Positions 12,127-32,000 of a stretch of 32,000 bases of DNA are shown here, in pieces. Under the pieces are notes generated by a model, which had not been told where the DNA came from, made no database searches, and worked only from the letters and a program-made list of their open reading frames with translations. The stretch's first letter is position 1. Every line of letters starts with the position of its first letter. The translations under genes were made by a program, and so were the position numbers. The stretch lies in assembly GCA_030615765.1 (NCBI GenBank), contig JAUWYP010000011.1, positions 21,867 to 53,866 on the forward strand. Reading direction: 5' to 3'. Origin of the DNA: Dehalococcoidia bacterium (GTDB taxonomy: Bacteria; Chloroflexota; Dehalococcoidia; SM23-28-2).

Positions 12127-12300
12127 ATGGCGCGGGTGGGGGCTTCGGATGGCGGTAGCAGTCAGATCATGATCGAATTCGAGTGCGACTGTGGGAACGT
12201 AATTCGCGTCCCAAAGAGTCCTGCCCACAAAGAGGGCACGTGTCCAGGATGCCAGCGACTCACACGTGTTCCCTCGGGAGGAGAATACGTTGGAATTTGA
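12127..12300 (+). CDS. Small Zn-ribbon protein (57 aa; below the ORF-track cut-off)
   Basis: Own translation: MARVGASDGGSSQIMIEFECDCGNVIRVPKSPAHKEGTCPGCQRLTRVPSGGEYVGI*. Contains CxC...CxxC. SD AGGAG lies 10 nt upstream of ATG 12127; an alternative ATG is at 12169. The stop at 12298-12300 overlaps the start region of the next ORF. Confidence 0.5.
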   Translation: MARVGASDGGSSQIMIEFECDCGNVIRVPKSPAHKEGTCPGCQRLTRVPSGGEYVGI

Positions 12301-15300
12301 GGAGGCAACGTCCCTTGTTCTCCGCCTTCTCGAGGAGAAGGGGAAGGCGAAGAACAGTGAGATGATGAAGCTGTGCGGCAACGACCGAGAGTTGTTCGAT
12401 CGTGTCCGCGAAGACCTCATCTTCAACGACTTGGCTGAAGACAAAAAGGGCGTCGGGCTGGTCTACGTACGCCCGCCCTCCGAGGTGCCACCTCTTGAGG
12501 TTCCCGTGGCGGAGGACGTTCAGGAAGTAGTAGCTTCCGAGCCCAACATTCCTGACGCCGATGTCGTCATCAGTTATTCGCACAAGGACTTCGATCTCGC
12601 CCGCGAAATCGTGCGACAGCTCGAGAACGCAAGCGTCAAGCTGTGGTGGGATAAGACCGGCATCCGAGCTGGTCGGTGGCGCGAGAAGATCGTCCGCGCA
12701 ATACGATCCTCCAAGACTCTCACTGTTTTGTGCTCTATCAACTCGATGCAGTCTGAGGATGTTCGCACGGAACTTGAGTTAGCCGACTATTATAGGCGCA
12801 ATCGGCTGCCGCTTGGTCTCGATGAAACGGACTATCCCGAAAGTATCATCTACTGCCTGGTTAGCTGGCACAAGCACCGGGTTCCGATCATGGACCGCTC
12901 GGTCACCGAGTGGCTGCCGGAGGTTCTGGATGCCTTGGTAGCCCTCGGCGTTGCCTGCGACCGGCCGGCACTTCCACCCCCAGCCGTCGCTCCGGCTCCA
13001 ACCGCTGCTAAGGCTGTCAAGCCAAGCTGGCCTGAGCGGAGGGCTGTTCCCGTCACGGCTCCCCCGGTAGGCCGGCCGGGAGCGGGACGGAGGTTCCGCA
13101 TCTTCGTCAGCTCTACTTACGGCGACATGAAGGAGGAGCGGAACGCGCTCCAGCGCTTCGTCTTCCCACGGCTAAGGGAGCTTTGTTCGGTGCATGGGTG
13201 CCGGTTTGAGGCGGTCGACCTGCGTTGGGGCGTCAGCCAGGAAGCTGGCCTCGACCAGCAAGCCATGCCGATCGCCCTCCAAGAGATCGACCCATGCCGG
13301 CGCACGACGTCTCGGCCCAACTTCATCGTCCTCCTCGGCGACCGTTACGGCTGGCGCCCGCTGCCCTCCGAGATCCCGGCCCATGAGTTCGAGGAGATCT
13401 GCCGGCGTATCTCCGCAGACAAACAGCAGCGGCTGAAGGACTGGTATTTCAGGGACGATAACGCCGTCCCGCCCGACTACTGCTTGAAGCCGCGTGAAAT
13501 GGGAGGCGAGTACGAAGACTTCGCCATATGGGAAGCGGTGGAGCGCGACCTTCGTTCCATCCTGCTCGCGGCGGTGAAGGGCATGCCGCTTGAGGCTCAT
13601 GACCGTATGAAGTACGAGGCGTCGGCCACCGAACAGGAGATCGCCCAGGGGGCGTTACGGGTCCCGGACGCCCGGGAGCACGTCTACTGCTTCTTCCGGA
13701 CGATCAAGGATTTGCCACGAGATCTGAGCGGGAGGGACTTTGTCGATCTTGACAGCGAGGGCAATCCGGACATCGATGCGCGCAGACGACTGGAAGAGCT
13801 GAAGCACAAGCTACGTGGCCTCCTCCCCGATAACATCTACGATTACGAGGCAAGGTGGAACGACGGTGGCATCACCACCGATCACATCGACAAGCTGTGC
13901 GAGGACGTTTTCGACGCCCTCTCCCGGATCATCGAGCAGGAGATCGAGCGGCTTGAACAGGTTGACCCACTGGATAAAGAGATAGCAGACCACGACGACT
14001 TCGGCCAGGATAGAGCGAAGTTCTTCACAGGTCGGGCCGACATGCTTAGGAAGATCGGCGACTACGTCAAGAGTGGGGACAGTCAGCCGTTAGCGGTTTG
14101 GGGAGAGTCAGGTTCGGGCAAATCGGCGCTGATGGCCCGCGCGGCCCAACAGGTTCGGGAAGACCTACCGAATGCCGAGGTCGTCCTTCGTTTCCTCGAT
14201 GCGACGCCGGAATCCTCGGACGGGCGCGCTTTGCTCGACAGCCTGTGCCGTCAGATCTCCCGGGCCTACGGGGCGGACGAAGCCACAGTGCCCACGGATT
14301 ACAGGGAAGTGGTCGACGATTTCCCGAAGCGGCTAGCCCTGGCCACTGAGGAGAAGCCGCTCATCCTGTTCCTAGACGCACTGGACCAGCTGTCCGACGC
14401 CGAGGGGGCCCGTAGCCTCATCTGGCTGCCCGCTGACCTGCCCGAACACGTGCGCCTGATCGTCTCCACCTTGCCGGGCGAATGCCTGTCGGCGCTGGAG
14501 AGCAAGCTCTCGGACACGAGCCTCGTGGAGCTAAAGCCGATGCCGCCCGATGAAGGTCGCAAGCTCCTGGACCTCTGGCTGGAGGACGCGGGTAGGACCC
14601 TTCCGCAGCATCAGCGAGACGAGGTGCTCAGCAAGTTCGGGGCCGAAGGTCGGCCGCTCTACCTCAAGCTGGCCTTTGAGGAGGCCCGCCGCTGGAAGTC
14701 CTACACGGACCCCAGCGACACAGTACTAGCTGAGGGCATCCGGGGCATCATCCGTGAGAACCTGTTCGCTCGTCTCTCGTCGCCGGCCAACCACGGCAAG
14801 ATGATAGTCTCGCGCAGCCTAGGGTATCTGGTCGCGGCGAAGAACGGTCTATCCGAGGACGAGCTGCTGGACGTGCTGTCCAGCGATGCAGACGTCCTCT
14901 CCGACTTCAAACGTCGTTCGCCAATATCGCCGGAGGTGGAGAGGCTACCGGTGGTGCTGTGGTCTCGCCTGTACTTCGACCTGGAACCCTACCTGACAGA
15001 ACGCAGCGCCGATGGCGCCTCCCTGATGACATTCTACCACCGTCAACTCGGCGAGGTTGTGGCGGAGGACTACCTGGCCGGCGATGCGAAACCAGGGCGC
15101 CACCGCGCTCTGGCGGACTACTTCGATAAACAAGGGCTTGAAATCGAAGGCGCTCCCAATCTACGCAAGATGTCCGAGCTGCCATTCCAGCAGACGCACG
15201 GCGAGATGTGGGAAGAGCTCTTCGCCACCCTCACCAATTTCCCCTTCCTGGAAAGGAAGGCCGCCGATCTCGGAGTCCTGGAGCGCACAGACGCCGAGGG

Positions 15301-17548
15301 GAACGTGACGCGGACCCACACCGGCGTCTTCCTGCTCCAGGACGACTTCCGGCTGGCCCTGGAAAAGATGCCCGGCGACGGCGCCACGCCCGGGGGCAGG
15401 AGACCGCTGCTTGAGGTCTTCTCGCGAGCCCTGGGTCGCGAGAGTCACGTCCTTCATCGGCGGCCCGATCTCCTCTGGCAGCAGCTGTACAACCGTCTCC
15501 AGTGGTCGGAGGGTGGCCCCGAGCGGCTCGCGGCAGAGCTTCAACGCCGAACAAGGCCGGGCTCAGCGCCCTGGATGCGGGTCCGAACGCCTTCCCGGGA
15601 ATCGGAGGCGCTCATCCGAACGCTCGAGGGTCACTCTGGTCCGGTCAGAAGTTGCGTGCTGAGTCGTGACGGCTCCGTGGTCGTCTCAGCGGGCGACGAC
15701 TACACCGTCCGACTCTGGGATGCGACGACCGGCGCTGAGCGGGCCTGCCTCGTTGGCCATGACGATTGGGTCACCGGCTGCGCCATCAGCCGGGACGGCA
15801 GCTTCGTCGTATCGGCCAGCTCCGACCTCACCTTGAGGGTTTGGGATGCGGTCAGGGGGGTGGAGCGAGCGGTTCTCGGAGGCCACACGGCCGCGGTCAC
15901 AGCCTGCGCCATCAGCCCCGACGGCTCCTTCATCGTCTCGGGAAGTCGCGACGGGACGCTCAAGCTCTGGGACGTGGCCACCGGGAAGGAGCTTCGCACC
16001 CTTGAAGGCCATACGTCCGGTGTCAGGAGCTGCGCCATCAGCCCGGACGGCGCCTTCATCGTCTCGGCAAGCGAGGACGGGAGCCTCAGAATCTGGGACG
16101 CGGCTGGCGGGCGGGTACTCTGCACTCTCAAGGGTCACACCGACGCGGTCTTGGGCTGCGCGGTCAGCCCTGATGAGGCCTTCATCGTCTCGGCAAGTCG
16201 CGACGGGACGCTGAAGCTCTGGGACCCGTCGAGCGGGAGGGAGCTTCGCAGTCTCGAAGGCCACGGCGAGCCGGTTCGGGGCTGTGCCATCAGCGGTGAG
16301 GGCTCGTTCATCGTGTCGGCAGGCGACGACAGGGTGCTGAGGATCTGGGATTCGGCTACTGGCATCCAGCGAGCGACCCTCGTTGGCCACGCCGATCTTG
16401 TGACCGCATGCGCGGTGAGTTCTGATGGCTCGTTCGTCGTTTCCGCGAGTGACGACGGCACGCTCAAGGTCTGGGATATGACTCTCCTCCAAGAGCCCGC
16501 TGCCATCGAAGGCCACGACGGCGCAATCTCCGGCTGCGCCATCAGCGCTGACGGCGCGCTGGTAGCTTCGGCAAGTCAGGACGGGACCATCAAGGTCTGG
16601 GATTTGGCCACCGGGGTGGAGCGCGCAACTCTCGGCGGCCACATGGGCGGTGTTTTCAGTTGTACTTTCAGCCCGGACGGCTCCGCTCTTGTCTCGGCAA
16701 GTGACGATGGGACTCTCAAGGTCTATGATCCAGAGACCGGGGAGGAGCGGGCCACCCTGCGTGGCCACAGGGGCGGCGTCTTCGGCTGTGCAGTCAGCCC
16801 AGACGGTGCGTTCGTAGTCTCAGCCGGCGAAGACCGGACGCTCAAGCTCTGGGACATCGGCACCGGAATGGAGCGGGCAACGCTGGAGGGACATGTCTCG
16901 TCCGTCAATCGTTGTGCGGTCAGCCCGGACGGGTCGTTCGTCGTCTCGGCCAGCGATGACGAGACAGTCCGGATCTGGGATGCGGTAACCGGTCAGCAGC
17001 GCGCTCGGCTCGTCGGTCACGGCTCGTCGGTCTGGGGCTGCGCCGTGAGCCCTGATGCCGCGTTCGTCGTTTCAGCGAGTTGGGATGGGACCGTCAGGAT
17101 CTGGGACGTGAAGAGCGGCGAACAGCGGACTGTCCTGAACGGCCACACCGACCAGGTGTGGGACTGCTCGGTTACTCCCGACGGTGGGTTCATAGTCTCG
17201 GCGAGCCGGGACAAGACTCTGAGGGTCTGGGATACGTTCGGCCGAGAGTGCGCCTCGTTGCCGCTGCCCGGCGGAGCGCTGTCCGTGGCCCTACATCCCC
17301 ACCTGCCGTTCGCAGCCTGTGGCGACGAGAGCGGGAGCTTCTACCTCGTCGATCTTGTCGGCATCGAGTACGGGCCTATCATCGTCACAACGAGTCATGG
17401 AGGGACGGGACCGACCCTGCGCTGCCCCGCGTGTCACGGGATCTTCCCTCTCGAGCAGAGCTGGCTCGGAGCCGAGATGACGTGTCCAAACCGCGAGTGC
17501 GGCACTCCGCTCCGGGTCAACCCGTTCATCGCCGGCCTACAGCGATGA
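12266..17548 (+). CDS. NLR-like STAND protein: N-terminal wHTH-like region - TIR - DUF4062 - NACHT NTPase - helical module - 14 WD40 blades - C-terminal Zn-ribbon
   Basis: TIR: DADVVISYSHKDFDLAREIVRQLENASVKLWWDK...LCSINSMQSEDVRTELELA (aa ~97-190; conserved Glu169 at nt 12770-12772). DUF4062: RRFRIFVSSTYGDMKEERNALQRFVFPRL...NFIVLLGDRYGWRPLP (aa ~276-366). Walker A GESGSGKS at 14102-14125; Walker B LILFLDALDQ at 14360-14389. WD40: 13 canonical units GH..V..CA.SPDGSF.VSAS.D.TL.[VIL]WD plus 1 degenerate (15623-17365). C-terminus: LRCPACHGIFPLEQSWLGAEMTCPNRECGTPLRV. The start is GTG 12266 or TTG 12290, the latter with GGGAGGAG 6 nt upstream. Confidence 0.9.
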   Translation: MFPREENTLEFEEATSLVLRLLEEKGKAKNSEMMKLCGNDRELFDRVREDLIFNDLAEDKKGVGLVYVRPPSEVPPLEVPVAEDVQEVVASEPNIPDADVVISYSHKDFDLAREIVRQLENASVKLWWDKTGIRAGRWREKIVRAIRSSKTLTVLCSINSMQSEDVRTELELADYYRRNRLPLGLDETDYPESIIYCLVSWHKHRVPIMDRSVTEWLPEVLDALVALGVACDRPALPPPAVAPAPTAAKAVKPSWPERRAVPVTAPPVGRPGAGRRFRIFVSSTYGDMKEERNALQRFVFPRLRELCSVHGCRFEAVDLRWGVSQEAGLDQQAMPIALQEIDPCRRTTSRPNFIVLLGDRYGWRPLPSEIPAHEFEEICRRISADKQQRLKDWYFRDDNAVPPDYCLKPREMGGEYEDFAIWEAVERDLRSILLAAVKGMPLEAHDRMKYEASATEQEIAQGALRVPDAREHVYCFFRTIKDLPRDLSGRDFVDLDSEGNPDIDARRRLEELKHKLRGLLPDNIYDYEARWNDGGITTDHIDKLCEDVFDALSRIIEQEIERLEQVDPLDKEIADHDDFGQDRAKFFTGRADMLRKIGDYVKSGDSQPLAVWGESGSGKSALMARAAQQVREDLPNAEVVLRFLDATPESSDGRALLDSLCRQISRAYGADEATVPTDYREVVDDFPKRLALATEEKPLILFLDALDQLSDAEGARSLIWLPADLPEHVRLIVSTLPGECLSALESKLSDTSLVELKPMPPDEGRKLLDLWLEDAGRTLPQHQRDEVLSKFGAEGRPLYLKLAFEEARRWKSYTDPSDTVLAEGIRGIIRENLFARLSSPANHGKMIVSRSLGYLVAAKNGLSEDELLDVLSSDADVLSDFKRRSPISPEVERLPVVLWSRLYFDLEPYLTERSADGASLMTFYHRQLGEVVAEDYLAGDAKPGRHRALADYFDKQGLEIEGAPNLRKMSELPFQQTHGEMWEELFATLTNFPFLERKAADLGVLERTDAEGNVTRTHTGVFLLQDDFRLALEKMPGDGATPGGRRPLLEVFSRALGRESHVLHRRPDLLWQQLYNRLQWSEGGPERLAAELQRRTRPGSAPWMRVRTPSRESEALIRTLEGHSGPVRSCVLSRDGSVVVSAGDDYTVRLWDATTGAERACLVGHDDWVTGCAISRDGSFVVSASSDLTLRVWDAVRGVERAVLGGHTAAVTACAISPDGSFIVSGSRDGTLKLWDVATGKELRTLEGHTSGVRSCAISPDGAFIVSASEDGSLRIWDAAGGRVLCTLKGHTDAVLGCAVSPDEAFIVSASRDGTLKLWDPSSGRELRSLEGHGEPVRGCAISGEGSFIVSAGDDRVLRIWDSATGIQRATLVGHADLVTACAVSSDGSFVVSASDDGTLKVWDMTLLQEPAAIEGHDGAISGCAISADGALVASASQDGTIKVWDLATGVERATLGGHMGGVFSCTFSPDGSALVSASDDGTLKVYDPETGEERATLRGHRGGVFGCAVSPDGAFVVSAGEDRTLKLWDIGTGMERATLEGHVSSVNRCAVSPDGSFVVSASDDETVRIWDAVTGQQRARLVGHGSSVWGCAVSPDAAFVVSASWDGTVRIWDVKSGEQRTVLNGHTDQVWDCSVTPDGGFIVSASRDKTLRVWDTFGRECASLPLPGGALSVALHPHLPFAACGDESGSFYLVDLVGIEYGPIIVTTSHGGTGPTLRCPACHGIFPLEQSWLGAEMTCPNRECGTPLRVNPFIAGLQR
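15623..17365 (+). repeat. Tandem 126-bp WD40 coding repeats (moderately diverged)
   Basis: 14 blades at 42-aa periodicity. The repeats produce the long antisense artefact ORF 15686..16768(-). Confidence 0.85.
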
Positions 17549-19404
17549 CCCCCAAAGGCGGAATAGACACGCACGAGAGCGAACGTTCGAGCGGGACGCC
17601 TCCCCGCGCTCGGAGCGAGACGTTCTGGCGGGACCGTGTACGGCCTCTCTGGGAGGCCGTCGAGTGGCCGCTAGTCGGCCTCCTTGCGCTGCTCGCGCTG
17701 GGATTGGGGATCGACGGCTTCCGGCAGCACCTCGAGGCGAGCGGGCAATCGCACTCAGCGTCGGATGTGCTCTACCGGACGTTGCAGCTCTTCGTTCTCG
17801 AGTCCGGATGGGACTCGAGAGGCGTCAACTGGGAACTCGGCGTGGCGCGACTCTTGGCGCCTGCGGTGGCCGCGTACGCAGCCGTGCGAGCGCTGGGGGC
17901 GATCTTTCGCGAGCAGCTCCACTTGCTTCGGGTTCGCTCTTGGGGGAACCACGTCGTGATCTGCGGGTTGGGGCGAAAGGGCGTGCTCTTAGCGGAGGCG
18001 TTCCGCGCCCGCAAGGAACGGGTGGCGGTGATCGAGAAGGATGAGGAGAACAGTGCGGTCCGCAGGTGCCGCGACCAGGGCATCCCAGTCGTGATCGGCG
18101 ACGCGACGGACCTGGCCGTCCTCCGCAAAGCAGGAGTCCAGAAGGCCAAGTGTCTGATCTCCGTCTGCGGCGAGGACGGCGTTAATGCCGACGTGGCCGC
18201 TCATGCCCAGGAGCTGGTGGCCGCGAAGCCTCGTCGAAGCGGCTTCCTCCGCTCGTTCGTCCACGTCGTCGACCTCGAGCTGTGCACTCTGCTCAGAGAC
18301 AGGGTGGCTGTGGCCGGGAAGCGACACTCCTTCCGGCTCGAGCTCTTCAACGTCTTTGAGAGCGGCGCCCGCGGCTGGTTGAACGAGCACCTGCCCTTCG
18401 AGTCGGCTGGCCGAGAGGACGGCCGGCCGCATCTCCTCGTCGTCGGCGCCGGGCAGATGGGAAAGAGCCTCATCGTCGGGGCGGCGAGAAGGTGGCTCAC
18501 CCTCCATGCTGGCGCCGGCCCGCGCCCGCGGATCACCATCGTCGATCGGGAGGCGGAGCGGAGGAAGGACTCGCTACTCCTGCGCCACCCGCAGCTCGAG
18601 CAGGTCTGCGAGCTGGTCCCCGTCCGGACGGACGTCACCTGGCCGGAGTTCGAGGAGGGGAGGTTCCTCTTCGACGCCGAGGGACGCTGCGACGTGACCA
18701 CGATCTACGTCTGTCTCGACGACGACGTGCGCGGCCTAGCCGCGGGGCTGGACTTGTTGCAGCGGGTGCGTGAACACGGGGTCACGATCGTCGTTCGCAC
18801 CGCCGAGAAGGCGGGACTCGCGGCCGCGCTTGGGAGCGAGCGTCCAGGCGGCGACGGCTTGGAGCTCCTGCACGCCTTTCCGCTGCTCGACCTAACCTGC
18901 ACCCCGGAGCAGCTTCTCGGTGAGACCCCCAGCGAGCGCCTCGCCCGCACCATCCACGAGGACTACGTGCAGCGCGAAAGGGAAAAAGGCGAGACGGTCG
19001 AGACCAACCCCTCGATAGTCGAGTGGGACGAACTCCCCGAGAGCCTCAGGGAGTCGAACCGGCGACAGGCCGACCACCTCGGTGCTAAACTCAAGGCCGT
19101 CGGTTGCGGTAGCGCACCGCTGACCGGTTCGGAAGCGGAACCGATCGCCTTCTCCCCGGAGGAGGTGGAGTTGCTTGCGGAGCTCGAGCACAAGCGCTGG
19201 ATGGCCGAGCGCCTGTTCGAGGGCTGGACGCACGCGCCAGGCCCGAAGAATCTCGAGCGGAAAACAAGCCCCGCTCTCGTCGCCTGGGAGGAGCTGCCCG
19301 AAACCGAGAAGGAGAAGGATCGAGCGACGGCGGGCCAGCTGCCGGCGTGCCTCGCCCGCGCCAGCTTCCAGGTTTACCGCCTTGAGGAAGGAGCCGTGCG
19401 ATGA
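17545..19404 (+). CDS. Membrane protein: 2 TM helices (ion-channel-like) - TrkA_N/RCK Rossmann x2 - RyR domain x2
   Basis: The start ATG 17545 overlaps the upstream stop (ATGA 17545-17548); the track's longer 17080 start lies inside the NLR gene. TM helices: WPLVGLLALLALGLGIDGF and WELGVARLLAPAVAAYAAVRALGAIF. TrkA_N: HVVICGLGRKGVLLAEAF...VAVIEKD and HLLVVGAGQMGKSLIVGAA. RyR: ERLARTIHEDYVQREREKGETVETNPSIVEWDELPESLRESNRRQADHL and VELLAELEHKRWMAERLFEGWTHAPGPKNLERKTSPALVAWEELPETEKEKDRA. Confidence 0.85.
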   Translation: MTPKGGIDTHESERSSGTPPRARSETFWRDRVRPLWEAVEWPLVGLLALLALGLGIDGFRQHLEASGQSHSASDVLYRTLQLFVLESGWDSRGVNWELGVARLLAPAVAAYAAVRALGAIFREQLHLLRVRSWGNHVVICGLGRKGVLLAEAFRARKERVAVIEKDEENSAVRRCRDQGIPVVIGDATDLAVLRKAGVQKAKCLISVCGEDGVNADVAAHAQELVAAKPRRSGFLRSFVHVVDLELCTLLRDRVAVAGKRHSFRLELFNVFESGARGWLNEHLPFESAGREDGRPHLLVVGAGQMGKSLIVGAARRWLTLHAGAGPRPRITIVDREAERRKDSLLLRHPQLEQVCELVPVRTDVTWPEFEEGRFLFDAEGRCDVTTIYVCLDDDVRGLAAGLDLLQRVREHGVTIVVRTAEKAGLAAALGSERPGGDGLELLHAFPLLDLTCTPEQLLGETPSERLARTIHEDYVQREREKGETVETNPSIVEWDELPESLRESNRRQADHLGAKLKAVGCGSAPLTGSEAEPIAFSPEEVELLAELEHKRWMAERLFEGWTHAPGPKNLERKTSPALVAWEELPETEKEKDRATAGQLPACLARASFQVYRLEEGAVR

Positions 19405-22400
19405 CCGACGAAACTAGAAAGACGCGCGATCGGAGAGCGAGGGTGAGGACGCCGCGCTCGCAGCGCCGCGTCGTCGTAACCGGAGACGTGACGATGGACT
19501 GGAACCTCGCCCGAACGCGTCGAGCCGAAGGGGCGGGCGCGGCGTGGAACGCGGAGGACACGACCGAGGGCTACCTGCAGCTGGGCGGGGCGGCGCTGCT
19601 GGCGGACCTCATCCAGACGGTCGTCGATCGGTTTCCGCCGGGCGCCGAGAAGTTCGAAGTCCGCCGGGCCGGCCTGCCCGGTGGGTTCTCGCTGGAGGCT
19701 CCGGAGTTCCACCATTCCTTCGCGCTCTGGTCGGCCTACGAGTCAGCCGACACTCCCCGGGTCTGGCGAGTCAAGGAGTTCCTGGGGCTGGACCGCCCGA
19801 GCGCAGAAGCGCAGCCCGCACCCAAAGGGGAGCAGGTGGTCGATGACCCGGTCGAGGCGGACTTGGTGATCCTGGACGACGCGGCGCTTGGCTTCCGAGA
19901 CGATCGCGGGCTGTGGCCAAAGGTGATCAGGGAACCCGCTGGACTGCAACCGTGGGTCTTGCTGAAGATGGCGCGGCCCATCGCCCAGGGAGACCTGTGG
20001 GAGCACCTGCGGCAGCACTTCGCGGAGCGACTGATCGTCATCATGACGATCAACGACCTGCGCCTCTCCGAGGTACAGATCAGCCGCGAGCTCTCGTGGG
20101 AGCGAACGGGGGAGGATCTCGCCCGCGAGCTGGTGAGCAATCCGCGGGTGAACGCCCTCTCTCAATGCGCCCACGTGGTGGTGTCGCTGAACACCGACGG
20201 GGCGTTCTTGCTCTCCCGCCGGGATGAGCCAGATAGGCGGTCCCCGGGGGAGACGCGGCCCGAGTGCCACCTCTTCTTCGACCCCAAGACAATCGAGGGC
20301 GTATGGGCGCAGCAGTACCCCGGCGGGATGGTTGGCTACACCACCTGCCTGACTGCCGGTATCGCCCGCGAGCTCATGCTCATGCCTGCCGACCCCGATG
20401 TCCGCCGGGGCATCCAGCGGGGGCTCGCGGCGATGCGGACGCTCCACCTGGTCGGATATGGCTCACGGGAGCCCGACGCCCGGGCCGACCTAAAGTTCCC
20501 CTACGAGGACGTGGCCGATGAGCTGGCGCGAGAAAGGGAGCAATTCGCCGTCGCTGAGGTGCCTGCGCCACACGGCGGCTCGTGGAGGATTCTGGAGGCT
20601 CGTTACCCGGAGGGCCTCGAGCGGGTCGCCCGGCAGATCGCGCGCGAGGGGGCGGAGGTCGCGCTCGAGGGCGTGCCGCTCGGCCGCTTCGGCGATCTGT
20701 TGACGGTCGATCGCGCAGAGATCGAGGACTTCCGGAGCATCCGGTCCCTGATCCACGAGTACAGCCGCGGGCGGCCGACTCGTCCGCTCTCGATCGCGGT
20801 CTTCGGGCCGCCGGGCTCGGGGAAGTCGTTCGGGATCGTCCAGGTGGTCGAGTCTCTGCCCGGAGAATTCGAGCGGCTCGACTTCAACCTCTCTCAGCTC
20901 AACGAGCCGGCCGAGCTGCACGGCGCCTTCCACCAAGTGCGCGACGTTGCCCTGGCTGGCTGCATCCCGCTCGTCTTCTGGGACGAGTTCGACACGACCC
21001 TGGGCGGCACGCAGCTCGGCTGGCTGCGCTACTTCCTAGTGCCAATGCAGGACGGCACCTTCCAGGAAGGGGAGCTAATGCATCCCATCGGCCCTGCCGT
21101 CTTCGTCTTCGCCGGAGGCACGAGCCACCGGATGGCTGCGTTCGAGACGATGGCGATGAAGGACACGGGGGCGAAGGCGACCGACTTCCTGAGCCGGCTC
21201 AAGGGCTACGTCGACATCCTAGGGCCGAACCCCCGCGACGGGGACGCAGCCACTGATCCCTACTACCTGATCCGCCGGGCGATCTTGCTGCGCTCTGTGC
21301 TTCTGCGCGACCAGCCAGATTTGTTCGAGCTGCGGGATGGCAACAAGTTGCTGCGGATCGATTCCGGTGTGCTGCGCGCGTTCCTCGAGACGCGCGAGTA
21401 CCGACACGGAGCGCGTTCGATTAAGGCGATCGTGGCGATGAGCCTCCTCCACGGCAAGACGCACTTCGAGCGCTCCGCCTTGCCCGCGGCGGGGCAGCTC
21501 GACGTTCACGTCCAGGCAGACGACTTCCTCGCGCTGGCACAGCGACACGAGCCGGAGGAGGAGGCGCTCGAGGCGCTCGCAGAGGCCGCGCACGTCGTCT
21601 ATTGCGCGGGGAGGCTCGAGGAGGGTCACAGGTGGCGCGAGCGGGACGTCGCGTATCTCGAGCGCCACAGCCTTCTCAAGCCGTTTGCCGCTTCGGCGTA
21701 CGACGGCACGGAGATGCTACCCGCCCTCGTCTCCTGGGAGAACCTGAGCGGCGAGGACAGGGAGCAGAACCGCGGCCAGGTGCGCCACATCCCGAGCCGT
21801 CTCGAGGCCCTCGGTTACGTCATGCGGAAGGCGCGCGGCGGCGTCGACCCCACTGCTTTCGTCCTCTCTAGGCGCATGCTTGAGCTCCTCGCCGAACAGG
21901 AGCACGAGCGCTGGCTCTGGGCAAGGCTGCGAGCGGGCTGGCGCTACGGCGCGATCAGGAACAACCGCCGGAAGCTCCATCCGGCGCTGCTGCCCTGGCG
22001 TCCGCTCTCGCTGGAGGAGCGCGAGCAGAGCTATGGGGTCTGCGAAGACCGCCTGGGGCCGGGCGAGCTTGTTGAAGGCGACAAGGAGAAGGACCGCGAG
22101 GCCGTGCGCGAGATGACACAGATCGTCGCCGCGGCAGGGTGCGAGATCGTGAAGGTGCGTGAGCCGGCCGTGATCGTCGGGGTAACGGGCCACCGCATCC
22201 TGGCTGAGGTCGAGAAGATCAAGAAGGGAATAGGGGAGGCGCTCGATCGGGTCGAGCGGTCGTTCCCTGGGAAGCCCCTCACGGTGATGTCCGCCCTGGC
22301 CGAGGGTGCCGACTGCCTCGTGGTGAAGCGGGTACTCGCGCGCTCGACCGGAGGCCTCGTCGCCGTTCTGCCGCTGGCCGCAGCCGACTACGAGACCGAC

Positions 22401-22730
22401 TTCGAGTCAGATGAGTCCAAACAGGAGTTCCGAAACTTGCTGGCTCAGGCAGACGAGACGATCGAGCTGCCGCCCGCTGCCACTCGGGAGGCGGCCTACG
22501 AGGCGGTGGGCGAGTACATCGTCGATCACTGCGACGTGCTCGTCACCGTCTGGGACGGCCAGGGCGCGCAGGGCCAGGGCGGGACAGGCGGGGTGGTGGC
22601 GCGCGCCCGCGAGCGTGGCCTCCCGATCGCCTGGGTGCACGCCGGCAACCGCAAGCCCGGAACGAACGAGCCGACCTCCCTGGGCACTGAGCAGGGAATG
22701 GTGACCTTTGAGCGTCTCGAGCCCGCCTGA
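19401..22730 (+). CDS. Multidomain protein: degenerate PfkB/ribokinase-like domain - AAA+ ATPase - RyR x2 - C-terminal SLOG (LOG/DprA/YpsA-like) domain
   Basis: ATG 19401 overlaps the upstream stop (ATGA 19401-19404). PfkB-like order of motifs: RVVVTGDVTMDWNL / LGGAALLADL / LIVIMTINDLRLSEV / AHVVVSLNTDGAFLLS / PGGMVGYTTCLTAGIAREL; the GAGD catalytic motif is not conserved. AAA+: Walker A GPPGSGKS (20805-20828), Walker B PLVFWDEFD, and YRHGARSIKAIV (sensor-2-like). RyR: MLELLAEQEHERWLWARLRAGWRYGAIRNNRRKLHPALLPWRPLSLEE...DKEKDREAV, plus an upstream copy (aa ~722-808). SLOG: VIVGVTGHR...SALAEGADCLVV...LVTVWDGQGAQGQGGTGGVV (22167-22655). Confidence 0.85.
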   Translation: MTDETRKTRDRRARVRTPRSQRRVVVTGDVTMDWNLARTRRAEGAGAAWNAEDTTEGYLQLGGAALLADLIQTVVDRFPPGAEKFEVRRAGLPGGFSLEAPEFHHSFALWSAYESADTPRVWRVKEFLGLDRPSAEAQPAPKGEQVVDDPVEADLVILDDAALGFRDDRGLWPKVIREPAGLQPWVLLKMARPIAQGDLWEHLRQHFAERLIVIMTINDLRLSEVQISRELSWERTGEDLARELVSNPRVNALSQCAHVVVSLNTDGAFLLSRRDEPDRRSPGETRPECHLFFDPKTIEGVWAQQYPGGMVGYTTCLTAGIARELMLMPADPDVRRGIQRGLAAMRTLHLVGYGSREPDARADLKFPYEDVADELAREREQFAVAEVPAPHGGSWRILEARYPEGLERVARQIAREGAEVALEGVPLGRFGDLLTVDRAEIEDFRSIRSLIHEYSRGRPTRPLSIAVFGPPGSGKSFGIVQVVESLPGEFERLDFNLSQLNEPAELHGAFHQVRDVALAGCIPLVFWDEFDTTLGGTQLGWLRYFLVPMQDGTFQEGELMHPIGPAVFVFAGGTSHRMAAFETMAMKDTGAKATDFLSRLKGYVDILGPNPRDGDAATDPYYLIRRAILLRSVLLRDQPDLFELRDGNKLLRIDSGVLRAFLETREYRHGARSIKAIVAMSLLHGKTHFERSALPAAGQLDVHVQADDFLALAQRHEPEEEALEALAEAAHVVYCAGRLEEGHRWRERDVAYLERHSLLKPFAASAYDGTEMLPALVSWENLSGEDREQNRGQVRHIPSRLEALGYVMRKARGGVDPTAFVLSRRMLELLAEQEHERWLWARLRAGWRYGAIRNNRRKLHPALLPWRPLSLEEREQSYGVCEDRLGPGELVEGDKEKDREAVREMTQIVAAAGCEIVKVREPAVIVGVTGHRILAEVEKIKKGIGEALDRVERSFPGKPLTVMSALAEGADCLVVKRVLARSTGGLVAVLPLAAADYETDFESDESKQEFRNLLAQADETIELPPAATREAAYEAVGEYIVDHCDVLVTVWDGQGAQGQGGTGGVVARARERGLPIAWVHAGNRKPGTNEPTSLGTEQGMVTFERLEPA

Positions 22731-26399: not shown

Positions 26400-26515
26400 G
26401 GGCTGTTGATGACGCGAACTCCTTGGAGGGCGGGGCGTTGGCTGCGAGTTCCCGTTGATGCGGGGGAGGGTTGCGCCCCGCCTGGGCGGTCGGGTACCGA
26501 ACTTGACGGGGAACC

Positions 26516-30027: not shown

Positions 30028-32000
30028 ATGGCACGAGCAACTAGGACGTTCCGGATTTTCGTCAGTTCCACCTTCAACGATCTCAAGGCGGAACGAAACG
30101 CACTACAGCAGCACGTGTTCCCCAAGCTGCGAGAGTTCTGCATGCAGCGCGGCGCCCGTTTCCAGGCTATCGACCTGCGCTGGGGCGTGAGCGAGGAGGC
30201 GGGCCTCGACCAGCGGACGATGAACATCTGCCTGGACGAGATCGAGCGCTGCCGTAAGACCACGCCCCGCCCCAACTTCATCGTGCTATTGGGCGACCGC
30301 TACGGCTGGCGTCCCCTACCAGCTCAGGTGGAGGCCGAGGAGTTCGAGGCCATCCTCGATAAGCTATCGGAACCCGATAGAGAACCCGACAGAGAGCTGC
30401 TCCTTTGGAGTGATTCCCAGCCCGACGATCAGAAAGGCTGGTATCGGAGAGATGATAACGCGCTTCCTCCGGTGTATTGCCTGAGGCCACGGGAGATAGA
30501 CGTCCCCGAGGGTGCCAGCGACGAAGAGAAGAAGGCCGCGCAGTATGAAGAAGCCGCCGAATGGAGGCAGACCGAGCAGCGACTTCGCTCTATATTCCTC
30601 AAAGCTGTGGAGGACATGCCGCCCGAGGCCTACGACCGCATGAAGTATGAGGCCTCGGCCACTGAACAAGAGATCGACCGAGGAGCAGTACGCGTCCTCG
30701 ACGCACGGGAGCACGTATTCTGCTTTTTCCGAAAGATCAAAGATGCCCCAGAGGATGAGAGCGCGAAGGACTTCCTCGACTTGGTGAAAGAAGGGGACAA
30801 GTGGGTAGCGGACAACGATGCGCGCACCCGGCTGAAAGGGCTAAAGGAGAAGCTGCGTGGCCTTTTCCCTGACAACATTTTCGAGTACGAGGCAGCATGG
30901 ACAGGCCTCCGCAGCGTCACGACAAATAGGATCGACAGACAATGCCGAGTGATTTTGGATGCCATCTCTCGCCATATTGCCGAGCTGGCAAAAGCAGAAG
31001 GGGCGTTCCAACCGGACTCCAAAACTTGCGATCGTCTTAACGAACTGAAGAACCAGGAACTACGAAAGCATCTCCCCGAGAATCTCACCAATGCAGAGAG
31101 CAAGACCATTGAAGCCGCCACCACTATTGACCACATCCCGAAGCTGTGCGCAGACGTCTACGCTGCTCTGTCCTGCATCATCCTGCAGGAGATGGCTCGG
31201 CTCGAAGATGTCGGCCCGCTGGACAAAGAGATTGAGGATCACAAGAAGTTCGGCGATGACCGCGCCGAGTTCTTCACCGGCCGGGCCGCCATCCTGAAGA
31301 CCATCGGCGACTACGTCAGAGGTGACGACCGTCACCCGCTGGCGGTATGGGGCGAATCGGGTTCAGGCAAGTCAGCGCTGATGGCCCGTGCGGCACAGCA
31401 GGTTCAGAGCGATATCCCGCACGCCGAGATCGTTCTTCGTTTCATTGGCTGGACGCCGGACTCGTCCGACATCCGATCTTTGCTGGCGAGAGTGTGCCGC
31501 CAGATCTCCCGCGCCTACGGGGCGGACGAAGCCACTGTTCCGACGGACTACAAGGAACTGGTTGATGATTTCCCCAAGCGCCTGGCCCTGGCCACTGCGG
31601 AAAAGCCGCTGGTCCTATTCCTGGATGCGTTGGACCAGCTATCCGACGTCGAGCAAGGTCGCAGTCTTGTCTGGCTACCCGCTGACCTGCCCGAGCACGT
31701 GCGCCTGATCGTGTCGACCCTGCCCGGCGAATGCCGGGCAGCGCTGGAGACAAAGCTTCCGGACACAAACCGCAAGAAACTGGAGCCGATGCCGCCGGAT
31801 GAGGGCAAGAAGCTGCTGGAACTCTGGCTGAAGGACGCGCGCAGAACCCTCCGGGACCATCAGAGAAAGGAGGTGCTCCGCAAGTTCGAGCTCTCTGGCA
31901 TGCCGCTCTACTTGAGGCTAGCTTTCCAGGAGGCGCGCCTGTGGAAGTCCTACACCACGAGAACGGAACTCAGCCCGGACATTCCGGGGATCATCCGCGA
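30028..32000 (+). CDS. Second NLR paralogue: DUF4062 - NACHT (no TIR); 3' end beyond the window
   Basis: Own translation from ATG 30028 (SD AGGAGG at 30017-30022) is open to the window end: MARATRTFRIFVSSTFNDLKAERNALQQHVFPKLREFCMQRGARFQAIDLRWGVSEEAGLDQRTMNICLDEIERCRKTTPRPNFIVLLGDRYGWRPLP... Walker A GESGSGKS at 31351-31374; Walker B LVLFLDALDQL. Not in the ORF track because it is open-ended. Confidence 0.9.
   Translation, partial: MARATRTFRIFVSSTFNDLKAERNALQQHVFPKLREFCMQRGARFQAIDLRWGVSEEAGLDQRTMNICLDEIERCRKTTPRPNFIVLLGDRYGWRPLPAQVEAEEFEAILDKLSEPDREPDRELLLWSDSQPDDQKGWYRRDDNALPPVYCLRPREIDVPEGASDEEKKAAQYEEAAEWRQTEQRLRSIFLKAVEDMPPEAYDRMKYEASATEQEIDRGAVRVLDAREHVFCFFRKIKDAPEDESAKDFLDLVKEGDKWVADNDARTRLKGLKEKLRGLFPDNIFEYEAAWTGLRSVTTNRIDRQCRVILDAISRHIAELAKAEGAFQPDSKTCDRLNELKNQELRKHLPENLTNAESKTIEAATTIDHIPKLCADVYAALSCIILQEMARLEDVGPLDKEIEDHKKFGDDRAEFFTGRAAILKTIGDYVRGDDRHPLAVWGESGSGKSALMARAAQQVQSDIPHAEIVLRFIGWTPDSSDIRSLLARVCRQISRAYGADEATVPTDYKELVDDFPKRLALATAEKPLVLFLDALDQLSDVEQGRSLVWLPADLPEHVRLIVSTLPGECRAALETKLPDTNRKKLEPMPPDEGKKLLELWLKDARRTLRDHQRKEVLRKFELSGMPLYLRLAFQEARLWKSYTTRTELSPDIPGIIR

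Follow-up and report, generated by a model that had tools for sequence, protein, structure and literature searches.

The window analysed here is a stretch of 32,000 nucleotides from a Dehalococcoidia contig. On its forward strand, the ORF list and the translation agree on an unbroken frame that runs from a GTG at 12266 to a stop codon at 17546-17548; a TAA at 12200 lies in the same frame. This is a real gene for a bacterial immune-receptor-like protein of the STAND/NLR type, with approximately 1,750 residues. All domains named in the initial annotation are present in the order given there, and the TIR_2, DUF4062 and NACHT profiles all match above their Pfam gathering cut-offs. The gene, its domains and its neighbours are listed in Table 1.

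Table 1. Features of the receptor gene and its surroundings in the window
Feature	Nucleotides	Strand	Residues	Evidence
Whole gene, cap-TIR_2-DUF4062-NACHT-WHD-WD40x14-Zn ribbon	12266..17548	+		ORF list, translation
Three-helix HTH-like cap	12290..12475	+	9-70	Homologue conservation, AlphaFold
Canonical TIR domain (TIR_2)	12554..12961	+	97-232	Pfam, PADLOC, phmmer, Foldseek
Pro/Ala-rich flexible linker joining the two TIR-type domains	12962..13090	+	233-275 (about 45 residues)	Sequence, pLDDT
DUF4062, TIR-like NADase-type domain	13091..13960	+	276-565	Pfam, TEP1 structure homology, AlphaFold
NACHT NTPase	14090..14587	+	609-774	Pfam NACHT E=1.3e-12; also AAA_16, NPHP3_N
NWD1-type winged helix of STAND module	14786..15079	+	841-938	Pfam HTH_NWD1 E=3.6e-7, 30.6 bits vs cut-off 27
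Lead-in segment (RPDLLWQQLYNRLQW...), NTPase module to WD40 array	15383..15622	+		Homology to free-standing WD40 genes
WD40 sensor array	15623..17386	+		Pfam WD40, TEP1 and other propeller models
C-terminal zinc ribbon (C1720, C1723, C1740, C1745, ...PLRVNPF)	17417..17521	+		Sequence, CxxC...CxxxxC
Partner 1: membrane protein, two predicted TM helices, TrkA_N, RyR	17545..19404	+		Pfam, ATGA overlap
Partner 2: unknown N-domain, AAA-type P-loop, RyR, C-terminal YpsA-like SLOG	19401..22730	+		Pfam, AlphaFold, Foldseek
Second free-standing WD40/PD40 protein, related N-terminal lead-in helix	23074..25671	+		Pfam
Free-standing WD40 (14 Pfam repeats) + TPR protein	27009..29909	+		Pfam, homology
Paralogue, DUF4062-NACHT without cap or TIR; runs past window end	30028..32000	+		Translation, Pfam

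The protein has 1760 residues if translation starts at GTG 12266 and 1752 if it starts at TTG 12290, eight codons downstream. A Shine-Dalgarno sequence (GGGAGGAG, 12276-12283) is located 6 nt ahead of TTG 12290, and the equivalent residue is the first in most homologues of the N-terminal domain; this TTG may be the true start. GTG 12266 may also be the start, as P0125, the closest N-terminal-domain homologue, is seven residues longer. An IS integrase is found approximately 700 bp upstream of the gene.

The first ~70 residues are translated: the same domain stands at residue 1 and is followed by TIR_2 in approximately 30 cluster representatives. This cap has no match in Pfam or NCBIfam. Its sequence shares 56-61% identity with the N-termini of other TIR proteins and carries the conserved motif FxRVREDLIFNDLAEDKKGVGLVY. 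Its earlier reading as a winged helix holds for three helices (model residues 3-17, 22-28 and 33-45, pLDDT above 90 in AlphaFold); the 'wing' has no confident model.

When pieces of the protein were scanned against Pfam, TIR_2 matched residues 100-186 (E=2.8e-15, 57 bits against a cut-off of 28). PADLOC matches the protein with TIR models only. The catalytic-type glutamate that had been assigned to this domain, E169 (nt 12770-12772), falls in an alignment column where 204 of 215 related TIR domains have Glu, and phmmer aligns it with the Glu of AbTIR 'NYEL' and PdTIR 'QKEL'. The best Foldseek matches of the TIR_2 model are the TIR domains of AbTIR, PdTIR and BtpA (probability 0.97-1.0); this part of the AlphaFold model is of moderate confidence (pLDDT 55-87). 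Four residues before the Glu there is an Asp where Trp is usual. The Pro/Ala linker that follows, already read from the sequence, has pLDDT below 50 (model residues 229-262).

The DUF4062 signature (FRIFVSSTYGD...LLGDRYGWRPLP) recognised in the translation corresponds to a significant Pfam match at residues 278-368 (E=8e-11, 42 bits against a cut-off of 24.7). The fold is TIR-like, as judged by homology to the crystal chain of the human TEP1 TIR-like domain (11gz_A; E=1.7e-12, or 5.7e-19 with a profile) and by the AlphaFold topology, b-a-b-a-b-[insert]-a-b-a-b-a, with pLDDT mostly above 90. The insert is family-specific, comprises ~95 residues (358-453, nt 13337-13624) and lies between strand C and helix C. 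When it is removed, the match to 11gz_A reaches 8e-15 over 183 residues and places E458 (nt 13637-13639) on TEP1 E1008; the chain offset of 893 was checked on R908, R954, R976 and the chain length. The equivalent of TEP1 R908 is Gly, and R976 is kept as R360. On this homology, DUF4062 is a TIR-like, NADase-type domain with a catalytic-type glutamate. Since it is TIR-like and E458 falls on TEP1 E1008, the two heads belong to one superfamily. The initial annotation was thus right that two N-terminal modules stand in tandem, but they are distant relatives rather than unrelated kinds. The '~240-aa helical region' also exists, but it is mostly the second half of the DUF4062 fold after LLGDRYGWRPLP and not just helices.

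DUF4062 hydrolyses NAD+ to ADPR; this activity requires E97 in KpSwz and E1008 in TEP1, where it climbs with concentration (bioRxiv 10.64898/2026.05.01.722283). A catalytic E-Y motif and NAD+ depletion have also been described for DUF4062 (bioRxiv 10.64898/2026.06.25.731849). In published assays of the full-length human proteins, TEP1 alone is active, and NWD1, NWD2 and NPHP3, which are nearest to the present protein in architecture, have no NADase activity; consequently, conservation of the Glu is no guarantee of catalysis.

The annotated NACHT motifs are both intact, with Walker A GESGSGKS at residues 613-620 of the translation (nt 14102-14125) and Walker B LILFLDALDQ at nt 14360-14389 (core LFLDALDQ, residues 701-708). 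The lead-in segment that follows the NTPase module also stands at the start of the two free-standing WD40 genes (23074 and 27009), and short-form relatives stop just ahead of it. The fourteen WD40 repeats counted earlier comprise 13 Pfam stretches, which are 13 exact 42-residue units (residues 1120-1665), and a degenerate closing unit that extends to about residue 1707. Fourteen repeats could form two seven-bladed propellers. Starting at its first residues, ORF 27009-29909 matches the C-terminal half of the protein with 55% identity; this ORF looks like a split-off sensor module. The zinc ribbon has a weak Trm112p-like match in Pfam; it also terminates the short-form relatives P0001, P0048 and L008 and the gene upstream of P0001 in locus L001.

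Sequence comparison supports the earlier proposal that the cap+TIR module is a graft on a DUF4062-NACHT chassis. P0001 is the only one of the 120 best relatives of residues 1-610 to combine TIR_2 and DUF4062, and all but one (119 of 120) of the best DUF4062-NACHT relatives lack the module. No TIR-DUF4062 fusion occurs in the 77 species-representative genome loci (0/77). Conversely, DUF4062 is present only in P0125 among the 148 best cap+TIR relatives (1.84 billion representatives searched); the usual host of the module is a different STAND type, NPHP3_N/HTH_TANC1 with WD40. L008, at 73-75% identity the closest relative among the genome loci, is a short form with neither TIR nor WD40. The paralogue at 30028, 57% identical to the core and preceded by GGAGG ahead of its ATG, begins directly at DUF4062 (MARATRTFRIFVSS), as had been noted.

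Among the best relatives listed, TIR_2 and DUF4062 are known together in only two other proteins. P0125 (1768 aa, 60% identical) is an independent instance of the architecture; P0001 is another, with no cap and no WD40. Walker A is broken in both (GAFGSGQS in P0001, GPAGADST in P0125). The DUF4062 of P0001 has Gly at the catalytic Glu position, and that of P0125 has lost the S-x-T of its motif. All three tandem proteins keep the TIR_2 Glu. Such decay of the DUF4062-NACHT core beside a retained TIR_2 Glu would suit a protein in which a single head is catalytic and the other is an adaptor, an autoinhibitory partner in a TIR_2:DUF4062 hetero-pair, or a decoy for phage anti-TIR proteins. The published head-to-head autoinhibition of KpSwz DUF4062 dimers and the inactivity of NWD1, NWD2 and NPHP3 in vitro point the same way. 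However, every catalytic and NTPase motif is intact in both heads and in NACHT of the present protein, which argues that both heads are under selection for activity, and decoy domains usually lose their catalytic residues; a single working head is quite unlikely.

The gene opens an operon whose members are translationally coupled: the ATG of partner 1 overlaps the stop codon of the receptor gene (ATGA), and the ATG of partner 2 overlaps that of partner 1 in the same way. Partner 1 contains TrkA_N, an RCK-type nucleotide-binding domain (nt 17953-18222, Pfam E=6e-20), and RyR (nt 19165-19368, E=2e-12); its sole NCBIfam match is a K+ transporter regulatory domain. In partner 2, RyR is again clear (nt 21873-22037, Pfam E=9e-19) and the AAA/bpMoxR matches are weak. 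Its C-terminal domain (nt 22191-22727) has no match in Pfam, and relatives of this domain are mostly stand-alone proteins of ~184 aa. The best Foldseek match of its AlphaFold model (pLDDT 89.5) is B. subtilis YpsA (2nx2; E=5e-5, probability 1.0, TM 0.65), the only significant one; ThsA is not among the best 50. The glycine-rich motifs SxLAEGAD and GGT are invariant in this SLOG family. In conflict systems, the YpsA-like SLOG clade is tied to the sensing of NAD/ADPR/cADPR (PMC6459960, PMC9503650).

Genes of the partner types also lie beside DUF4062-NACHT genes in loci L001, L006 and L007 by synteny. In raw counts, uncorrected for the background rate of RyR, SLOG and TrkA_N genes, 39 of the 77 genome loci have them at a distance of up to 10 kb, as do 19 of the 31 loci with full flanks. 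Loci with partners are found in Chloroflexota, Acidobacteriota, Ignavibacteriota, Thermodesulfobacteriota, Planctomycetota and archaea. Such a conserved operon, with partners that resemble nucleotide sensors and channels, has apparently not been described in the literature.

The protein is most likely a ligand-triggered, oligomerising, NAD+-consuming receptor, whose products may signal to the partners. We give a little better than an even chance to a STAND/NLR receptor with two NADase heads that acts in four steps: sensing, assembly, NAD cleavage and partner signalling. The WD40 array, perhaps with the zinc ribbon, would keep the protein inactive in the absence of a trigger, which is most likely a macromolecule derived from phage or stress. 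Once the trigger has bound, NACHT would swap its nucleotide and oligomerise, in analogy to APAF-1, NLRs, Avs and bNACHT proteins. The oligomer would crowd both TIR-type heads, with DUF4062 abutting NACHT and TIR_2 on its flexible tether. As judged from alignments and models, both heads retain the fold and the catalytic glutamate (E169, E458); their active sites would need self-association, like those of known TIR NADases and of TEP1/Swarozyc DUF4062. Both would cleave NAD(P)+, causing depletion and releasing ADP-ribose-type products. SLOG and/or TrkA_N, as nucleotide-binding domains, could read the NAD+ drop or an NAD-derived product and pass the signal on, possibly by RyR-RyR contacts, to a membrane effector, resulting in cell arrest or death. 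On this view the cap+TIR_2 module is a lineage-specific gain from another STAND clade that adds a second, sequence-divergent NADase. It could plausibly make the receptor robust to phage proteins that inhibit one of the heads, or provide a second product.

In a rival reading, labour is divided between the heads. TIR_2 may be a cyclase or transferase making a cADPR isomer or other ADPR conjugate that the YpsA-like SLOG reads specifically, with DUF4062 as bulk NAD+ depleter or mainly as assembly scaffold beside the NACHT ring. Because the TEP1 DUF4062 yields ADPR without any cyclic product, a signalling chemistry could be what a second head contributes; by analogy with AbTIR W204, the Trp-to-Asp change in TIR_2 might shift product choice. 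A canonical TIR with its Glu shares the operon with a SLOG domain. Thoeris is built on the same pairing, and cADPR sensors are among the members of the YpsA-like clade (PMC9503650). This division of labour is nevertheless unlikely. SLOG, RyR and TrkA_N partners accompany DUF4062-NACHT genes in dozens of loci that contain no TIR_2; the partners are thus independent of TIR_2, and the SLOG ligand is unlikely to be a TIR_2-specific product. At the P0125 locus, which has TIR_2, partner genes were not found nearby.

The neighbours of the gene, its partners included, have no PADLOC matches and no classic defence genes adjoin the operon in the window; a defence role is therefore a matter of family context. 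The operon might instead serve housekeeping or developmental signalling, for example in a multicellular organism of the Chloroflexota type, where it would couple redox or NAD status to ion flux via the TrkA_N membrane protein, with the NLR-like protein as a regulator rather than a suicide switch. TrkA_N domains normally control K+ transport according to NAD(H) or ATP, YpsA itself works in cell division and oxidative stress, and filamentous bacteria are rich in STAND/WD40 paralogues (Kibby et al. preprint). This role is very unlikely given the patchy distribution across phyla, archaea included, and the IS integrase upstream. Conflict systems typically show the paralogue expansion, domain shuffling and splitting or joining of sensor modules seen here, and the DUF4062 proteins tested to date are antiphage NADases (2026 preprints).

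As a candidate two-headed NADase receptor, the protein can be compared with several known systems. Animal NWD1, NWD2, TEP1 and NPHP3 and the bacterial DUF4062-NACHT-WD40 STAND relatives likewise have DUF4062 directly ahead of NACHT, then an NWD1-type winged helix and WD40 propellers; with TEP1 the likeness extends to the TIR-like crystal structure and the aligned catalytic Glu. Unlike this group, the protein has cap+TIR_2 in front and a C-terminal zinc ribbon, and its gene is in an operon with RyR, TrkA_N and SLOG proteins. TEP1 has no ~95-aa insert in DUF4062 and contains TROVE/vWA domains, which are absent here.

The single-gene antiphage NADases Swarozyc (KpSwz) and Evangelion (Eva01) of the 2026 preprints share the DUF4062 TIR-like core with its S-x-T-E-x-E motif and the output, predicted for the present protein, of NAD+ hydrolysis upon higher-order assembly. 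In contrast, they are small, have no STAND NTPase, WD40 or second TIR, and sense phage portal or replication proteins directly through auxiliary C-terminal regions.

TIR-bearing STAND defence proteins are known under the system name 'TIR-NLR'. Bacterial TIR-STAND proteins of the bNACHT/Avs type have the same tripartite plan, with an N-terminal TIR effector, a central STAND NTPase and a C-terminal repeat sensor, and bacterial NACHT proteins show fast turnover of effectors, N-terminal TIRs among them (Kibby et al. preprint). NPHP3_N/HTH_TANC1-WD40 STAND proteins are headed by the same cap+TIR_2 module. In bacterial TIR-STAND proteins, however, TIR abuts the NTPase as sole effector; here DUF4062 lies between TIR and NACHT.

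Thoeris, in which the TIR of ThsB makes a cADPR isomer and the SLOG domain of ThsA reads it, also encodes a TIR-family enzyme together with a SLOG-family domain. In the present operon, by contrast, SLOG is joined to an AAA-RyR protein, or elsewhere lies beside one, and does not go with SIR2 or TM effectors, the TIR-type enzymes are carried on an NLR, and the signalling is a prediction. In the APAF-1 apoptosome, similarly, tandem WD40 propellers serve as the sensor of a STAND NTPase and are thought to free oligomerisation upon ligand binding. APAF-1 differs in having 15 blades (7+8) instead of 14, and a recruitment domain where the output domains of this protein are enzymes.

A single output domain is the norm in NLR-type receptors of bacteria and animals. 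The receptor encoded at 12266-17548 carries two sequence-divergent domains of NAD-cleaving type, a canonical TIR_2 and a DUF4062, and both are apparently catalytically competent, judging by their residues. Whole-protein Pfam and PADLOC scans are dominated by WD40 models; the N-terminal domains emerged once the protein was split into pieces. Scanned in this way, the TIR_2, DUF4062 and NACHT profiles claimed in the initial annotation all exceed the Pfam gathering score. The NACHT motifs claimed with them are intact in the translation: Walker A (aa 613-620) matches GxxxxGK[ST] and Walker B, LILFLDALD (aa 699-707), is of the hhhhD type. The STAND layout is complete, with NACHT followed by the winged helix HTH_NWD1 and a C-terminal repeat sensor. 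This sensor consists of 13 exact 42-residue WD40 units (aa 1120-1665) and one degenerate closing unit, in agreement with the 14 repeats counted earlier; we infer a 7+7 split of these repeats into two propellers. A zinc ribbon (CPAC...CPNREC) follows at the C-terminus. Every sequence and predicted-structure criterion that can be tested places the protein in the TIR_2, DUF4062 and NACHT/STAND families.

Features of the focal protein, its neighbourhood and related loci (window coordinates unless a locus is named; aa numbered from GTG 12266)
Feature	Position	Strand	Profile score or sequence
IS-type transposase (HTH_21 + rve + rve_3)	10731-11594	-	
57-aa ORF	12127-12300	+	MARVGASDGGSSQIMIEFECDCGNVIRVPKSPAHKEGTCPGCQRLTRVPSGGEYVGI
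Focal ORF	12266-17548	+	DUF4062 motif SATEQEI intact; Walker A GESGSGKS intact
TIR_2	aa 100-186	+	Pfam E=2.8e-15, 57.3 bits (cut-off 28)
DUF4062 (PF13271)	aa 278-368	+	Pfam E=8e-11, 42.4 bits (cut-off 24.7)
DUF4062 insert	13337-13624 (aa 358-453)	+	WYxRDDNAxPPxYCLxPR
NACHT	aa 609-774	+	Pfam E=1.3e-12, above gathering score
HTH_NWD1	aa 841-938	+	Pfam E=3.6e-7, 30.6 bits (cut-off 27)
Gene 2 (TrkA_N-RyR)	17545-19404	+	TrkA_N E=6e-20; RyR E=2e-12
Gene 3 (AAA-RyR-SLOG)	19401-22730	+	RyR E=9e-19
Gene 3 N-terminal domain	19401-20720	+	
Gene 3 C-terminal domain	22191-22727	+	
WD40 gene	23074-25671	+	
266-aa ORF	25658-26458	+	HExxH-like GHELVHRGQG
WD40-TPR gene	27009-29909	+	
Antisense 519-aa ORF	27404-28963	-	
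DUF4062-NACHT paralogue	from 30028	+	
P0001 (tandem relative)	L001 2683-5802		DUF4062 motif SATEQGV, Glu -> Gly; Walker A GAFGSGQS broken
P0125 (tandem relative)	L085 4271-9577		DUF4062 motif YLLEQEI, S-x-T lost; Walker A GPAGADST broken
TIR-TM-WD40 or TIR-TM gene	L011 17604-19073		
TIR-TM-WD40 or TIR-TM gene	L028 6591-9839		
TIR-TM-WD40 or TIR-TM gene	L048 1945-5721		

The canonical TIR is also matched by PADLOC TIR models, down to E=3e-10. Its AlphaFold topology (bA-aA-bB-aB-bC-aC-bD-aE) is flavodoxin-like b-a-b, modelled with moderate pLDDT (55-87). The top PDB matches in Foldseek are AbTIR, PdTIR and BtpA (probability 0.97-1.0); the E-values are weak (~1e-2) because the 592-residue query model held three domains. 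E169, earlier proposed as the catalytic Glu, lies in helix C and is aligned with the Glu of AbTIR and PdTIR; in a domain-level phmmer alignment, 204 of 215 related TIR domains have Glu in this column. From sequence and model together, the canonical TIR looks catalytically competent. Four residues before the Glu, Asp replaces the usual Trp. An 'E192' given by a large MAFFT alignment, in which the focal helix C was out of place, is spurious.

DUF4062 was identified as a TIR-like NADase in two preprints of 2026. Hydrolysis of NAD(P)+ to ADPR was shown for KpSwz (Swarozyc), where it requires E97, and for human TEP1, where it requires E1008 and increases with concentration, while human NWD1, NWD2 and NPHP3 are inactive in vitro (10.64898/2026.05.01.722283). 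Evangelion proteins have a catalytic 'acidic-S-Y-T...E-Y' motif in common (10.64898/2026.06.25.731849). The focal DUF4062 aligns with the TIR-like crystal chain of TEP1, 11gz_A, at E=1.7e-12 (5.7e-19 with the family profile). The HMMER alignment ends at LLGDRYGWRPLP because a large insert of this bacterial family sits there. HMMER does not bridge this insert of ~70-95 aa, and the catalytic Glu is reached only after in-silico deletion of residues 373-440. The alignment to TEP1 then spans 183 residues (E=8e-15), and E458 of 'SATEQEI' falls on the second Glu of TEP1 'SVTEMEV'. This TEP1 Glu is chain position 115, equal to residue 1008; the offset of 893 was checked with R908, R954 and R976 and with the 220-residue length of the chain. 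E458 is the focal equivalent of the catalytic Glu in the motif S-x-T-E-x-E-[YIV]. This Glu corresponds to Eva01 E87 as well as to the KpSwz and TEP1 residues, and its conservation across the family alignment exceeds 90%. Two active-site arginines are reported for TEP1. R976 has its counterpart in R360 (GDRYG); at the position of R908 the focal protein has Gly (STYGD), and the family consensus there is S/N, not R.

AlphaFold predicts a full b-a-b-a-b-[~95-aa insert]-a-b-a-b-a fold for aa 276-565, with pLDDT mostly above 90. Whether DUF4062 adopts a TIR-like fold had been posed as a question; the complete modelled fold and its homology to the TEP1 chain answer it in the affirmative. Foldseek with the 592-residue model did not place DUF4062, as the TEP1 structure is outside the library searched; the domain was placed instead through the sequence alignment to the TEP1 chain. 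By alignment and predicted structure, DUF4062 belongs to the TIR-like NADase family and the two heads are related. The two N-terminal modules described as different are thus both present, but both are of TIR type. Similarly, the ~240-aa helical region described behind them exists, but the AlphaFold model and the TEP1 alignment assign most of it to the second half of the DUF4062 fold plus the family-specific insert. A flexible linker separates TIR_2 from DUF4062. The insert, which human TEP1 lacks, is confidently modelled as helices and small hairpins between strand C and helix C, and contains a conserved motif (see table); it may be a regulatory or oligomerisation subdomain.

The focal gene is a single unbroken ORF from GTG 12266 to the stop codon at 17546-17548, with an in-frame TAA at 12200. 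The true start is probably TTG 12290, eight codons 3' of the listed GTG, because the N-termini of homologues correspond to it and the Shine-Dalgarno sequence GGGAGGAG lies 6 nt before it. P0125, the closest homologue, carries a 7-residue N-terminal extension, in view of which GTG 12266 may be the start. The first ~60 residues form a conserved cap domain (motif FxRVREDLIFNDLAEDKKGVGLVY) shared at 56-61% identity with the N-termini of other proteins, there too ahead of TIR_2; this disposes of the concern that the N-terminal 95 aa are untranslated. Among 1.84 billion cluster representatives, searched exhaustively with HMMER, ~30 carry the cap, nearly all of them from residue 1. No Pfam or NCBIfam model matches the cap. 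Its earlier reading as a winged helix holds for three helices, which AlphaFold models with pLDDT above 90, but not for the putative wing, which has no confident model; the domain is described here no further than as an HTH-like three-helix cap. Promoter and terminator scans gave only chance-level results.

Upstream of the focal gene is a 57-aa ORF, preceded by AAGGAG at 10 nt; its stop overlaps the TTG 12290 start by 11 nt. Its pattern CxC-x16-CPxC-xxLxRV is similar to the zinc ribbon with which the focal protein ends, as do the short forms, DUF4062-NACHT relatives that lack WD40. It has no significant Pfam match. The idea that it is the remnant of a deleted upstream short-form gene was rejected, since a stop codon directly precedes its ATG and no homologue is found among 84 related loci. 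An IS-type transposase is located ~700 bp upstream of the focal gene, as would fit a region that is mobile or has been rearranged.

A single protein, P0001, combines TIR_2 with DUF4062 among the 120 best relatives of aa 1-610; the remaining complete proteins begin 'MARASRTFRIFVSS...'. TIR is fused to DUF4062 in none of 77 loci from species-representative genomes, which are mainly of Chloroflexota and Acidobacteriota and include other phyla and archaea. The closest of these loci, in a Dehalococcoidia MAG (73-75% identity), encodes a short form that has neither TIR nor WD40 and carries the same terminal zinc ribbon. Searches with the cap+TIR module give the converse result: P0125 alone carries DUF4062 among the 148 best relatives. 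The 25 cap-bearing representatives carry TIR_2 (24), NPHP3_N (15), WD40 (14) and HTH_TANC1 (12); on sequence evidence the module normally heads a different STAND clade, in which TIR abuts the NTPase. The paralogue at 30028, which is 57% identical, opens directly at DUF4062 and is without TIR, as first described. The proposal that a TIR was grafted onto a DUF4062-NACHT chassis is supported by these comparisons. By sequence, the cap+TIR module was grafted on, and a tandem of this kind is very rare, with three examples found in all.

P0125 (1768 aa, 60% identical) comes from an independent metagenome and has the full architecture minus the zinc ribbon, so the tandem did not arise as an artefact of assembly. 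P0001 (51% identical) is TIR-DUF4062-NACHT-zinc ribbon, without cap or WD40. All three tandem proteins retain the TIR Glu. The core motifs of P0001 and P0125 (see table) suggest that the old core may be decaying once TIR has been added. The three TIR-bearing proteins do not group in an NJ tree of the core; this tree is not bootstrapped, and P0002, the nearest relative, is truncated at its N-terminus. Either a single gain followed by losses or recombinational transfer is possible. Several of the best TIR relatives hold 3-7 tandem TIR_2 domains. At three loci, TIR-TM-WD40 or TIR-TM genes without an NTPase are found within 10 kb of DUF4062-NACHT.

The sensor half is also modular. The segment RPDLLWQQLYNRLQW marks the point just before which short-form relatives end. 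In the window it recurs as the start of the free-standing WD40-TPR gene, whose TPRs are C-terminal and whose product shares 55% identity with the C-terminal half of the focal protein; the WD40 gene at 23074-25671 opens with a related lead-in. Since these boundaries are shared, the focal protein reads as cap+TIR, short DUF4062-NACHT form, WD40 sensor and zinc ribbon; comparison of the genes shows fission and fusion of the sensor within the family. In the related locus L006, two free-standing WD40 genes with the lead-in lie ahead of a short DUF4062-NACHT gene. The free-standing genes suggest split receptors, with the sensor as a separate polypeptide. The start of a 266-aa ORF overlaps the end of the first WD40 gene; this ORF has no family match, a 40% identical stretch adjoins RyR genes in L048, and the ORF may belong to the cluster as one more component. 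An antisense 519-aa ORF opposite the repeats of the WD40-TPR gene is repetitive and almost certainly a GC-rich-repeat mirror artefact, not a gene.

The focal gene is followed by two partner genes. Its stop overlaps the ATG of gene 2 (ATGA 17545-17548), and the gene 2 stop overlaps the ATG of gene 3 (ATGA 19401-19404). Gene 2 encodes two hydrophobic helices, an RCK-type TrkA_N domain and a RyR domain. By eye, its layout is K+-channel-like (TM1, 'VLYRTLQLFVLESGWD', TM2, RCK domain), with LESGWD versus TVGYGD at the selectivity-filter position; the protein could be a channel that is degenerate or non-selective, or have no pore. Gene 3 encodes an N-terminal domain, an AAA-type P-loop, a RyR domain and a 179-residue C-terminal domain. 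The 440-residue N-terminal domain has no Pfam, NCBIfam or PDB sequence match, but 22 of the 77 genome loci have it conserved at 25-64% identity.

The C-terminal domain of gene 3 is usually a stand-alone 'hypothetical protein' of ~184 aa, as in L006, where it is a separate 184-aa gene. The family (835 relatives, including homologues P0273-P0392) is unannotated, with no model in Pfam or NCBIfam, and has invariant SxLAEGAD and GGT motifs. Pfam (including ThsA and SLOG models), NCBIfam and PDB sequence searches do not support a SLOG assignment and return only weak Rossmann-like noise (GAPDH or haloacid dehalogenase). The AlphaFold model (pLDDT 89.5) has one significant structure match, B. subtilis YpsA (E=5e-5, probability 1.0, TM 0.65), after which a clade of the SLOG superfamily is named, and it is this predicted structure that points to a YpsA-like domain of the SLOG superfamily. 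The YpsA-like SLOG clade has been linked to sensing of NAD, ADPR and cADPR in conflict systems (PMC6459960, PMC9503650).

In the P0001 locus, L006 and L007, these partners again lie beside DUF4062-NACHT genes. By tblastn, 39 of the 77 genome loci have at least one partner within 10 kb; of the 31 loci with full flanks, 19 do (raw counts). Partners also adjoin NLRs without TIR_2; therefore, whatever they read is not specific to TIR_2. Neither the partners nor the NACHT core has a PADLOC match, and literature searches returned nothing relevant on RyR+TrkA+NACHT or on SLOG+RyR+TIR. As far as we could find, the RyR/TrkA_N/SLOG operon is undescribed, and we rank it as a more interesting lead than the tandem. 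RyR, TrkA_N and YpsA-like SLOG are nucleotide- or channel-associated modules for which we know of essentially no prokaryotic role. DUF4062-NACHT genes travel with them across phyla, a wider result that may exceed the tandem in importance.

By analogy with APAF-1, NLRs, Avs and bNACHT, the WD40 array would sense a trigger and the NACHT module would oligomerise. The clustered DUF4062 and tethered TIR_2 would then self-associate and cleave NAD(P)+, as do known TIR and DUF4062 NADases. The inactivity of human NWD1, NWD2 and NPHP3 in vitro and the moderate confidence of the TIR model call for caution here. More speculatively, SLOG and/or TrkA_N might read a drop in NAD+ or an ADPR-type product, and the RyR domains might relay the signal to a membrane protein. 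Equally speculative are two roles for the second head: it might confer robustness against inhibitors of one head, an idea which follows the effector arms race proposed in the preprint of Kibby et al., or it might add a second chemistry.

The focal protein is a natural test case for why effectors duplicate, whether for inhibitor evasion, two products or mutual regulation. It could likewise be used to ask whether NACHT oligomerisation switches on an NWD1-type DUF4062, given that human proteins of this type are inactive in vitro. In its fullest form, which we consider rather unlikely, the proposal is of an undescribed, widely transferred prokaryotic system with the focal gene as its sensor and enzyme arm: NLR-borne TIR-type NADases produce or deplete an NAD-derived nucleotide, SLOG/TrkA_N read it, RyR relays to a membrane protein derived from a K+ channel, and TIR_2 adds a second nucleotide chemistry. 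If true, this would give bacteria a counterpart of the connections that eukaryotes have between NAD-derived messengers (cADPR, ADPR) and both RyR and SLOG-bearing TRPM2 channels, and those connections might have evolved from it; it would also provide a first function for the RyR domain.

The window neighbours of the focal gene are an IS integrase and proteins without known identity. At the related locus L006, a type I R-M subunit and a CAP12-type TIR gene are nearby. A defence role is suggested by family context and not by this locus. The nearest architectural counterparts of the focal protein are NWD1/TEP1-type proteins and the TIR-STAND defence proteins of bacteria. Like Thoeris, its operon, joined by ATGA overlaps, encodes a TIR enzyme together with a SLOG-domain protein. 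In contrast to Thoeris, SLOG is fused to an AAA-RyR protein (elsewhere it is stand-alone), and there is no SIR2 and no ThsA-type effector; because of this different fusion context and effector content, the operon is not filed as Thoeris. If it is one pathway, the RyR domain would gain a function, and the logic by which TIR makes a nucleotide and SLOG reads it would reach past Thoeris to NLR-based systems. Set against these known systems, a canonical TIR in tandem with a TIR-like DUF4062 on one NLR is a novel combination of known kinds of domain.
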